This document shows positions 19,997 through 59,919 of a stretch of DNA of 64,000 nt, piece by piece. How positions within the stretch are numbered: the stretch's first letter is position 1; every line of letters begins with the position of its first letter. The stretch lies in NCBI GenBank assembly GCA_028534125.1, contig CM052825.1:25544001-25608000 (forward strand). The letters run 5' to 3'. The position numbers and the translations under genes are program-made. The DNA comes from Lama glama (lineage: Eukaryota). The notes beneath the pieces were generated by a model. It ran no database searches. It saw only the letters and a list, made by a program, of their open reading frames with translations, and was not told the origin of the DNA.

Positions 19997-20108
19997 CTCC
20001 AGGATGCTGCAGCGCTCCGAGCGGCACTCAACATCCTCACAGGGCCGGAACATGCCGAGGGTCACGCAGTTGAGCATGATGACCAGCATACTGACGTGTT
20101 CGAACCAC
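19997..20108 (-). CDS. CACNA1H: CACNA1H exon 3 (IS1)
   Basis: CCTTAAC...CAC| acceptor; (P)[19 protein letters not shown]...CSILE; donor GAG|GTGGGT. Confidence 0.97.
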
Positions 20109-21264
20109 GTGGGGCCAGAGTTAAGGGTCCACATGCAGGCGGAGGAGCCCTGGGACCTGCCCCCAGTACCTGGCAAAGCTGCCCCAGGGCCAGTTCCTTG
20201 ACATCCCCATGCCTGCCCCGTCAGCTGGGCAGTGAGGGACAGATCCGACACCAGTCTCTGGACTCTGCTGCCAACCTCTCGTGTACAGCAGGACCCTGGA
20301 TGGAGGTCGGCCACTGCACCCCAACTCCAGTGTACCAAACTACAGTCAGACTCTTGAATGAGCAGCCTCAGGGATGCTGCCCAACCTGGACCCCAATTAC
20401 CACAGATGTCCACCAACTGTGAAGGCACCATGAGGGTGGCCCCAGAGCCCCCCTCCCTGCAGCCCTGCATGAACCCTCCTGTGACCTCTGACCATGGTGA
20501 CAGGCAATAAGGGATGTGAACTTTAGCTCAATTCAGTGTCTGGGCCTGGAGGACCAGCAGCCCTACTCTGGGCCTGGATGAAGGGGGACAGGACACGGAC
20601 AGAGGACTGGTGAGTGAGGACCACCCACCATCACCGCCCCAACCCAAGTCAGTCCTGGGAGTGGAAGCCACTTGCCCGTGAAGAGCCCTGTCCAAGAGAC
20701 GTCCTGTTGGTAGGAGGACCAGAGGTCCAGCCAGAACCTCAGGGCACGAGGCCAGCAGCGAATGCTGCGTGAACCCAGCATGGGTGTCCCAGCCACACTC
20801 GGATGTCGCTGGCTCTCAGGGTGAAAGGCCACCCTTCACCTCAGTGAGCACTCCCAGTCATTCTGGGAGTGGCCACCAGGTGGCACCATGGTTCCACAGA
20901 GGCCACGGTGCGGCTGCAGCTTTTGCCCCCTCTGTGGCTGTCTCCATGAAGGGGTGCACCCCTGTGCCTGCCCCCAGTGGCTCATCAAGAAATTGGGGGC
21001 CCCTATGGTGTCCCAGCCATGTTAGGTATGAAGAAGGGGCCCAGAACCCAGACCAGGCAGGGGGCCCAGAGCTGCCCAAATGGGAGCTAGGCTGTGTGTG
21101 GGGGTTCCCTGTTTGGAAGACTGGGGCTTCACCCAAACCCGTGGGTAGAGGTAGGTACCCCTCAAGCCTGAGGGGCATTCCTTGTACCCCACATAAAGAA
21201 CCTCCCTCATCAGGACCCACATCAATCCCTGAGGCAGATTTTCTGCAGGCTGCCTGCCTGCCCT

Positions 21265-57456: not shown

Positions 57457-57755
57457 GGGTTGCAGACCAGCCGGAGACACCAGCTGCGCGGCCGCGTGGT
57501 CTGCCCGAGGCAGAAGAAGACAGTGGCCGCCAGTGCCGGGTACGGGACGGGCTGCTCTTCGTCGGCGCCCAGGTCCGCGCCCCGCTCGGCCGCCGGGCTC
57601 TCGGGGGGCGACGCACCAGACCCCGACCCCCGCTCCGCGTCTGGCCCCGGCGCCTCAGGGCTCGCCCGGGACGCCCCCGCCGCTGTTGCCGGGCCCGGGG
57701 CGGGCGCGCCCAGGGGCACTCGGACCTCGTCGGCAGCCAGCGCGCCCTCGGTCAT
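57457..57755 (-). CDS. CACNA1H: CACNA1H exon 2 coding part (exon begins 57773; ATG at 57755), N-terminus
   Basis: cccgcag| acceptor, GCCGCCACCATG Kozak, [16 protein letters not shown]...RLVCNP; ends at U12 donor CC|ATATCCTT; 299 nt. Confidence 0.97.
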
Positions 57756-58058
57756 GGTGGCGGCGGGCAGCACCTGCGGGAGACAGGCGGTGACCGGGTC
57801 CCGGGAACGACACCCTAGCCCGCCTCAGGCGGAGCGGATCCCCGGGAACAGCCGCGGCTGCCGGGATGTCTTTGTCTTTTCTCATTAGAGACAAATGCGC
57901 CCCCCGCCCCCGCCCGCCCCCTCCCTCCCGCGAGGGCTGAGAGGCCCCTCCCCCACCGCCGGGACGGGGGCAGGCGCCTGAGGGGCTCCCTCGCGGGCTG
58001 CCTCAAGTTGAAGAGGGTCCCGGCGCACAGTGGGGCGCGCGTCCTCGTCGCGTCTCAC

Positions 58059-58363
58059 CTCGCTCCGGCAGCCGGCTGCGTCCCCGAGGGCATCGCCCGG
58101 GCGGCGCGGTCACCGCAGACCCGGCAAGGCGCTCGGCCCCGGGTAGAGAGCCGCCGCCCCCGGCCCGCGCCCCCGTCCCGCCGCCTCCCGCTCGCGCTGC
58201 GGTTCCCGCTCCGGCTGGCCTGGCGGCGACGGCGGCGGCCCGGCGCAGAGGGGTCCGCGGGGCGGACGGGCGCGGAGCAGGGGGCGCGGGGGGCGCGGGC
58301 CGGGTGGCGGAGCGGAGACCGAGCTGGGAGCCTGTCCGCCCGCGGCGCAGGAAACTTCGGAGT
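58059..58363 (-). other. CACNA1H: CACNA1H exon 1 (non-coding 5' UTR; 5' boundary approximate)
   Basis: Donor GAG|GTGAGA at 58059/58058; Inr-like TCACTCC with A at 58363; GC boxes just upstream; inside CpG island. Confidence 0.75.
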
Positions 58364-58583
58364 GAGCCACGGACTGGGCGGGGGTGGGGCGGGGCCGGCG
58401 CGGGGGGCGGGGCCGGGCGGGGGGCTTCGGGAGGGGCTGCTCGGGTTCGGAGTCGCGCGCGCGAGCCGCCCCTCCCCCGTAGCGGAGGGCGCCCCGCCCC
58501 CCACCGGGGAGGGCGGAGCTGGGCCCGCCCGCGCCCCCCGCGCCCCCCGCTGCGCCCCCACTCTCCCTCTCTAGGAGCTCGGG

Positions 58584-58598
58584 GCGCCAGGGGGCGCT
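58584..58598 (+). promoter_or_regulatory. CTCF-like motif upstream of exon 1
   Basis: GCGCCAGGGGGCGCT resembles the CTCF core; GC-rich background weakens significance. Confidence 0.4.
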
Positions 58599-58900
58599 CG
58601 CGGAGAAGCTTGGCGGGGGCGGGGGAGCGGCGCCGGCGTCTTCCCCACCCCCAACTGCGGGGGCGGCCGGAGTCGCGGAGGCGGGCCCTCCCCCTCCTCG
58701 CCGCGGCGCACGCCCCAGTCCCTCCGCGCAGTGGGCGGGGGTCGGCGAGGGGGCGGGGCCGGCGGCCTGGACCGCGGCCTGAGTGCCCCTCCCCCTCCGC
58801 ATGTGTGTCCTGGGTGTGACCGTGCCCGTGTGATGTGCTGCTGTATCCGTGGGTGGGATTCTAGGTACTCGTGCATCCGCATTCCCCCCCAACATACACA

Positions 58901-58918
58901 CGCGCGCGCGCGCGCGCG
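58901..58918. repeat. (CG)9 microsatellite
   Basis: cgcgcgcgcgcgcgcgcg flanked by CA units. Confidence 0.97.
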
Positions 58919-59919
58919 CACAAGCGCACCTATGGCAGCTTCTGCGAACTTGTCCCTTGCCCAGCCCCCTCCTGGGTCAAGACCTGTAGGACCTTGGGGA
59001 AGGGGCCAGGCCGTCCTGCAGCCCCTCGCTCCGGTACTGAAATGCATGAGGGACAGAGCACCGACTCCTGTGCTTCGGGGTCCCACCCAGGCTCCTTGGC
59101 CCCTGAGGTACTGCCAGGCTTTTCACTTCTCCACCACCACCAGTCTGCTGGCTCCTGGTGCGTGCGTTCTGGGGCTGGCCAGGGAGAGCAGCCCCTGAGG
59201 GGCTTCTCCCTTACTCCTTACAAGCCCACTTAGGATGGAGGAGAGACCCCACTTCCTCTGGACAAAGAGCAGGGCGGCTGGTCCACACATGTGGGCTCCA
59301 GGAGCCTTGGGCCTCACCATAAGCTCTGTGGTGGTGGTGGGTGGGAGGGCCTTGGGCCCCAAACCTGGAGAGGCTCTGGCAAGATCATTGGCATACTGGG
59401 CTTCCCCACCATGGTGGCATTGCACAGAGTGTAGCCAGGATGGGATGGACATGCTGTTCCTGGAGAAGGGAAGGCCCCAGGAGGCCCTGTACCCTCCCAG
59501 ACCTTTGGGCTCTGGGGTAAGACCCAGGAAGGCAGGACCATGGCAGCTCCCACACAGATTCCAGGAGGTGTCCTGCTCTGGCCAGTCATGGCTCAGCAGC
59601 ACCTTCTCTTGTGTATGTGAACTTTTCAAGAAAAAGAAAACATTTACTCTATTTTAGTACTACTACTTAGCAGTGGAGTGCCATGGTCAGTAATTAAGGC
59701 CCTCAAAGAGCAATTAGTGCCCCAGCCACCTAGAAGGGGGACCAGGAGAGCCCTAGGATTCAGCCCTACGGGAAAGCTTGCAAGGGTAGGTCAGACAGGA
59801 GCGCCTCAGCAGGATCCTGGGCAGGGGTCACCTGGACCTCCTGATCCTTTTCATACTGTCCATCTCATTAAAAGTTAAGGTGAAGCTCAAAATTGGTTCT
59901 AGCTAGGGGCTATTAGTGA

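Follow-up and report, generated by a model that had tools for sequence, protein, structure and literature searches.

Results

An intron-split uORF in the CACNA1H leader

The window, by which we mean the whole 64,000-nucleotide stretch of DNA analyzed here, carries on its minus strand the 5' two thirds of CACNA1H, which encodes Cav3.2. The first coding exon matches Cav3.2 of many vertebrates (112 homologues, the best named of which share 74-89% identity), and more than 20 further exons of the gene were located at 20116 to 155. The leader lies within a CpG island, and the features that concern us here are collected in Table 1. An earlier note on this DNA had described a spliced uORF that starts at the only AUG of exon 1, and both parts of that description hold: no other ATG lies from 58801 to the donor, and the path from a uAUG at 58093 through 35 nt of exon 1, across a splice from 58059 to 57773 and on to a TGA placed over the main ATG is exact in the sequence. 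The predicted spliced uORF comprises 18 codons, MPSGTQPAAGARCCPPPP followed by the stop, and is read in the -1 frame, with its TGA overlapping the CACNA1H start. As an AUG-initiated uORF should, it begins 5' of the main start in a different frame and has its own stop. The two AUGs are 53 nt apart in the spliced RNA, 18 nt of exon 2 precede the main ATG, and the splice sites of intron 1 are a GAG/GTGAGA donor at 58059/58058 and a CAG/GTG acceptor at 57774/57773.

Table 1. Features of the CACNA1H leader and first coding exons, in window coordinates
Feature	Position	Strand	Description
CpG island	57601..59000	.	promoter, exon 1, intron 1 and start of exon 2; GC 0.62-0.85, CpG observed/expected 0.78-1.1 (200-nt windows)
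Conserved 21 nt before uAUG	58094..58114	-	GDRAARA in the uORF frame; 6/7 codons invariant
Upstream AUG (uAUG)	58091..58093	-	context GCG-ATG-C: purine at -3, C at +4, moderate
Exon-1 part of uORF	58059..58093	-	35 nt, MPSGTQPAAGA plus two bases of Arg
Intron 1	57774..58058	-	285 nt, GT-AG; junction shared by gene models of orca, vaquita, bank vole and goat
Exon-2 part of uORF	57752..57773	-	CCPPPP and stop; equals the channel Kozak plus ATGA in the -1 frame
Kozak GCCGCCACC, main ATG (57755-57753) and overlapping uORF stop TGA (57754-57752)	57752..57764	-	CACNA1H
Next AUG after the main start in the spliced mRNA (Met107)	20087..20089	-	in frame, second coding exon, A at -3; candidate delayed-reinitiation site, use inferred only

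Two details were absent from the earlier note, namely that the main CACNA1H start has A, not G, at +4 and that, with intron 1 retained, the uORF frame stops at the donor (AGG TGA) after 12 codons. Upstream of the uORF, its frame is open for 160 codons. An in-frame N-terminal extension of the channel from a near-cognate start is ruled out here: the main frame closes at TGA 58112, and there is no near-cognate codon in exon 1. In a survey of sequencing runs, 18 of 24 held the stretch, 13 of them with at least half of its words, across 5 studies, and the share of 0.57 fits exon 1 joined to exon 2 and intron 1 followed by exon 2 alike.

Several other elements were seen in and around these exons. 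A donor-like site lies at 58113 on the minus strand, and its use would skip the uAUG. Two elements directly upstream of the uAUG, within the conserved block, may bind factors or form small hairpins: a perfect palindrome of 10 bp (58103-58094) and the inverted repeat GCGGT-G-ACCGC (58116-58106). Within the GC-rich intron 1, an AT-rich element at 57860-57900 (minus strand) has the inverted arms TTTGTCT...AGACAAA; it appears as HLSLIRRDKDI-like text in many unspliced mammalian ORFs, similar text occurs in a shark model (P0073), and the element may be a deeply conserved non-coding one. An ATG in this element, at 57885, opens a 76-codon frame across the main start if the intron is retained, and most orthologues have Ile at that position. 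The first coding exon is followed by an intron of 37 kb whose last two bases are AC, behind a CCTTAAC branch-point motif (about 20110-20130, minus strand), as in a U12-type AT-AC intron, a class known in voltage-gated channel genes.

Conservation of the uORF in other mammals

Metagenome contigs scanned with a pattern of the acceptor-Kozak-start motif yielded 0 matches and hence no DNA of other species, so conservation was followed in predicted proteins called in the uORF frame. Such a comparison covers only ORFs that have been called, is blind to synonymous changes, and used queries that contained the Met. Among these proteins, an orca NCBI model (XP_049555353.1, 'taperin-like') ends RAARA-MPAGTPPAAGARCYPPLP and a vaquita model (XP_032461988.1) ends RAARA-MPAGTPPAAGARCYPSLP; both have 18 residues from Met to stop and cross the same junction as the window. 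Seven of eight Logan proteins, representing one whale-like and three further lineages, end Met-Pro-x-Gly-Thr-Pro-Pro-x-Ala-Gly-Ala-Arg at the unspliced donor stop, which places the Met 12 codons before the donor, and the eighth (P0121) diverges before the uAUG block. Altogether, 9/9 orthologous proteins extending into the block keep the Met, from four lineages in addition to that of the window, and the exon-1 part has the same length in each.

Records in other frames bear on the same spacing. In a spliced bank vole model (P0023), the main frame runs across the junction and the spacing is again 18 codons, and an unspliced record from a rodent cluster (P0140) reads the third frame at the same length; together the two fit an ATG, if both rodents share the codon, which is an extrapolation across two species. 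A goat model (P0126) uses the same junction of exons 1 and 2, and in a marmot model (P0007) the splice partner of exon 2 lies upstream of the uAUG block. Six main-frame codons precede the channel Met in 14/14 mammalian entries that show the exon-2 leader, and the interval from uAUG to main AUG is free of indels in every lineage seen, with frames shifting farther upstream. The proteins matched among those called included no primate, marsupial or non-mammal record of the uORF frame; the human reference transcript presumably carries the same uAUG.

In the four lineages sharing the frame, 15/19 columns of the block around the uAUG are invariant versus 9/25 just upstream (Fisher p=0.006). Within the block, 6/7 codons before the uAUG are invariant versus 9/12 after it (four to five lineages; p=1.0). 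Because the seven codons before the Met are equally conserved, the target of selection may be an element of the DNA or RNA instead of the uORF. The start codon, frame and stop position are kept in the orthologues, in few lineages and with queries biased toward the Met, and this retention is observed at the protein level. Of the features that the earlier note proposed to compare, the uAUG position, the spliced spacing of 53 nt and the stop over the channel start are all retained in other mammals at that level. The orca 'taperin-like' and vaquita 'basic proline-rich protein-like' entries (P0113 and P0114), orthologous to 58370-57752 of the window, are apparently translations of the CACNA1H leader in the uORF frame and are probably annotation artefacts. 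The orca model begins at an extra upstream Met, which would give a uORF of 111 residues.

Chance expectation for the AUGA overlap

The null model consisted of 5000 dinucleotide shuffles of each of two leaders, of 320 and 210 nt, in which the Kozak sequence and ATGA were held fixed. A uAUG was present in 35% of the shuffles of the longer leader and 49% of those of the shorter one, and a uORF ending on AUGA arose in 9.0% and 13.6%, respectively; among shuffles with exactly one uAUG, the fraction rose to 26-28%. Composition by itself predicts approximately 0.5-0.9 ATG per exon of 140-340 nt. An ending on AUGA is likely to arise by chance because a GC-rich leader has few stops, one third of uAUGs fall in the -1 frame, and the first stop that these reach is that of ATGA.

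The A of the uORF stop is the first base of channel codon 2. An N-terminus could be scored in 74 of the 112 homologues, with 38 incomplete or paralogous entries left out and isoforms unmerged, and codon 2 encodes Thr in 62, Ile in 2 and Ser in 10, giving 64/74 with Thr or Ile, from shark to mammal. The MT[ED]G start of Cav3.2 is common to shark, bony fish and mammals, and the +4 A is kept across vertebrate CACNA1H; both paralogues in the genome begin with ATGG and lack the overlap. The uORF is not fused in frame to the channel in any of the 74 scored N-termini. Taken as a whole, the arrangement exceeds chance only in part, namely in its conservation.

The Pro run and the stop-start geometry

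The Pro run that precedes the stop is GCCGCCACC read in the -1 frame, and the C-terminus of the uORF varies from CCPPPP in the window to CYPPLP in the orca and CYPSLP in the vaquita. The earlier note had taken the run for an eIF5A-sensitive stall before the stop, a claim that finds no support here because the run is the Kozak sequence in another frame and is broken in the whales (PPLP in the orca, PSLP in the vaquita). The uORF also lacks the mark of a conserved or stalling peptide, given its variable C-terminus and a conservation of 9/12 codons inside it versus 6/7 just outside. Slowed elongation, according to what Kozak is said to have found in 2001, reduces reinitiation; a slowed ribosome would then be expected to reinitiate less, which disfavors coupling driven by the Pro run. 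In the same work (NAR), reinitiation was reportedly barely detectable when the AUG lay 4 nt before the stop of the uORF.

The AUGA itself had been put forward as the geometry of termination-reinitiation. We see no sign of coupling in it, because its A comes from codon 2, the prior for such an ending is approximately 1 in 4 and the TURBS core motif is missing. That core motif is UGGGA; the spliced leader, taken from 58400 as far as the uORF stop, contains no TGGGA, nor was there RNA folding in excess of shuffles (z +1.49; z +0.93). According to PMC10275272, viral termination-reinitiation needs a TURBS element, in which a motif complementary to 18S rRNA sits in a structure ahead of the stop; it comes after a long ORF and takes place where stop and start overlap or lie within 20 nt. 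The CACNA1H uORF shares the overlap (AUGA); it has no such motif, folds like its shuffles and is 18 codons long. The same paper gives 3-20% reinitiation for the AUGA and UAAUG overlaps of caliciviruses, assigns reinitiation after short uORFs to start codons downstream of the stop and describes restart at overlapping codons for long ORFs with a TURBS.

Discussion

A likely brake on Cav3.2 translation

CACNA1H has an 18-codon, intron-split uORF whose start and spacing are kept in several mammals and which, on balance, likely serves as a dosage brake on the translation of Cav3.2. Scanning 43S complexes would meet the uAUG in a moderate context, where a fraction would initiate, translate the -1 frame and terminate with the channel AUG already under or behind the ribosome. 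These ribosomes would mostly be lost to the channel, as with an overlapping uORF, because there is no spacer in which to reacquire initiator tRNA, and the channel would be made mainly by ribosomes leaking past the uAUG. From the leader we infer that the uAUG is present in most transcripts, that initiation occurs there, and that it represses the channel, which leaky scanning would then supply. Both the Pro run and the precise AUGA geometry probably came along with a good Kozak sequence and an N-terminus that begins Met-Thr, and neither is likely to be a stall signal or a coupling device. The 'translational rheostat' of the earlier note therefore survives in part: retention of the uAUG, the spacing and the stop fits a repressive uORF with channel output by leaky scanning, whereas the proposed coupling by -1 reinitiation is unsupported. 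Such an effect would be in keeping with passages of PMC10193022, which describe uAUGs and uORFs as repressors and report one in approximately 50% of human leaders.

The 3' end of exon 1 could instead carry a conserved DNA or splicing element to which the uAUG belongs, the uAUG being rarely used or left out of the mRNA, through downstream TSSs or another donor, with a small effect on output, a reading we hold to be unlikely. The conservation on either side of the ATG is equal (6/7 versus 9/12), which fits it, as do the palindrome and inverted repeat that adjoin the uAUG; against this, a purine occupies position -3 of the ATG, and 9/9 orthologous proteins that reach the block retain the codon. 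Composition would by itself supply roughly one half to nine tenths of an ATG in an exon of this size, which also fits the passenger reading; the freedom from indels from uAUG to main AUG in the lineages seen, as upstream frames shift, speaks against it. The donor-like site at 58113 and the marmot model without the uAUG block provide a means of leaving the uAUG out, but the donor 3' of the ATG is the one used in four gene models. Against translation of the uORF, CACNA1H was not found in six supplementary files that accompany a study of 7,264 Ribo-seq ORFs in humans (PMC10032668), a search made without a control gene and in samples where expression may be low.

Terminated ribosomes might also resume scanning, miss the main AUG and start at Met107, yielding a channel with no cytoplasmic N-terminus, or else trigger nonsense-mediated decay through the many downstream junctions. 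We rate this as quite improbable, and it can coexist with a repressive uORF bypassed by leaky scanning. The next AUG in the spliced mRNA is indeed Met107, in frame and with A at -3, but its retention is already explained by the protein, since Met107 stands at what we take to be the start of the first transmembrane segment. A precedent is given in PMC10193022, where the uORF of TP53BP1 V3 acts as a repressor of the neighboring AUG while promoting delayed reinitiation at an AUG inside the ORF. For decay, more than 20 exons lie downstream and reinitiation after uORFs is, according to 10.1101/2022.01.10.475702, not fully protective, yet CACNA1H was not found in the literature on nonsense-mediated decay at the level of titles and abstract openings. 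A mammal-wide stop-start switch, in which ribosomes terminated at AUGA would restart in place without a TURBS or run on to Met107 to produce a truncated channel, with Thr2 held partly by the overlapping stop, seems to us very doubtful. True stop-start coupling, the earlier note's strongest reading, with terminating ribosomes shifting back one base to restart on the overlapping AUG at a rate set by the Pro-rich tail, is highly implausible: the geometry is present and kept in two whales, the +4 A persists across vertebrate CACNA1H where both paralogues have G, and calicivirus overlaps of this kind do reinitiate, but the viral cases depend on an upstream TURBS and a long ORF and UGGGA is absent here, the overlap is expected by chance about once in four, the Pro run is unconserved, the whole MT[ED]G start rather than the A alone is conserved, and a slowed ribosome is, as noted above, expected to reinitiate less.

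Implications

A repressive uORF at this position would matter for a channel whose level counts in pain, absence epilepsy and aldosterone secretion and whose control has been studied mostly at the promoter. The conserved uORF offers a translational dial for Cav3.2 that is open to testing. Variants that destroy the uAUG or shift its frame would become candidate dosage alleles, blocking of the uAUG could raise the channel level, and cDNAs that begin at the Kozak sequence would lack uORF control. A uORF of CACNA1H was not found described in the literature on the uORFs of the gene, its promoter and exons or nonsense-mediated decay, as covered by titles and the starts of abstracts with most subscription papers outside the search, and no passage of PMC8770422 matched TSS or exon terms. 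The uORF is real and conserved and apparently undescribed, and uORF databases or supplements may list it. Specialists in translation are unlikely to be surprised, because the class is very common (approximately half of human leaders, in passages of PMC10193022) and the special features of this member are largely explained by the Kozak sequence and codon 2.

Related systems and paralogues

The overlapping uORF2 of ATF4 is a repressive uORF that is passed by leaky scanning. The CACNA1H uORF differs from this class in that its overlap is minimal, a single stop codon, and no stress induction of the ATF4 type is expected because there is no second uAUG upstream in this species. Among conserved-peptide or arrest uORFs, that of AMD1 (MAGDIS) resembles it in being short, with a conserved start and length; in CACNA1H, by contrast, the C-terminal residues vary and conservation is equally strong 5' of the Met. 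The uORF of POLG (PMC10742948, PMC8789081) is likewise out of frame, leaves no room for reinitiation and requires that its uAUG be skipped for the main ORF to be translated. The TP53BP1 V3 uORF (passages of PMC10193022) is also short, ends near the main AUG, represses, allows possible delayed reinitiation and is conserved between species, but it is in frame, is tied to an alternative promoter and has had its mechanism shown with reporters, whereas the CACNA1H uORF is in the -1 frame, intron-split, overlaps the AUG and is known from sequence. The 12 'AUGA' strings in those passages appear to be the label AUG-a, not an overlap. Caliciviruses (passages of PMC10275272) and the influenza B M1/BM2 pair (PMC3035654) share with CACNA1H the nucleotides common to stop and start (AUGA) but differ in their long upstream ORF, their structured, 18S-complementary TURBS and the lack of scanning access to the second start; CACNA1H has 18 codons, no UGGGA and a main AUG open to leaky scanning.

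The two paralogues in the genome have leaders of other designs. The one starting MDEE (L002 1032-1483) has three upstream ATGs within 460 nt, all at the same frame offset, and two uORFs, 35 and 10 codons long, terminate 70 nt short of its start; we take this gene to be CACNA1G-like. The other, which starts MAES and is presumably CACNA1I-like, has a splice-acceptor-like site approximately 25 nt before the start (L003 ~1480-1516), which suggests a non-coding first exon as in CACNA1H.
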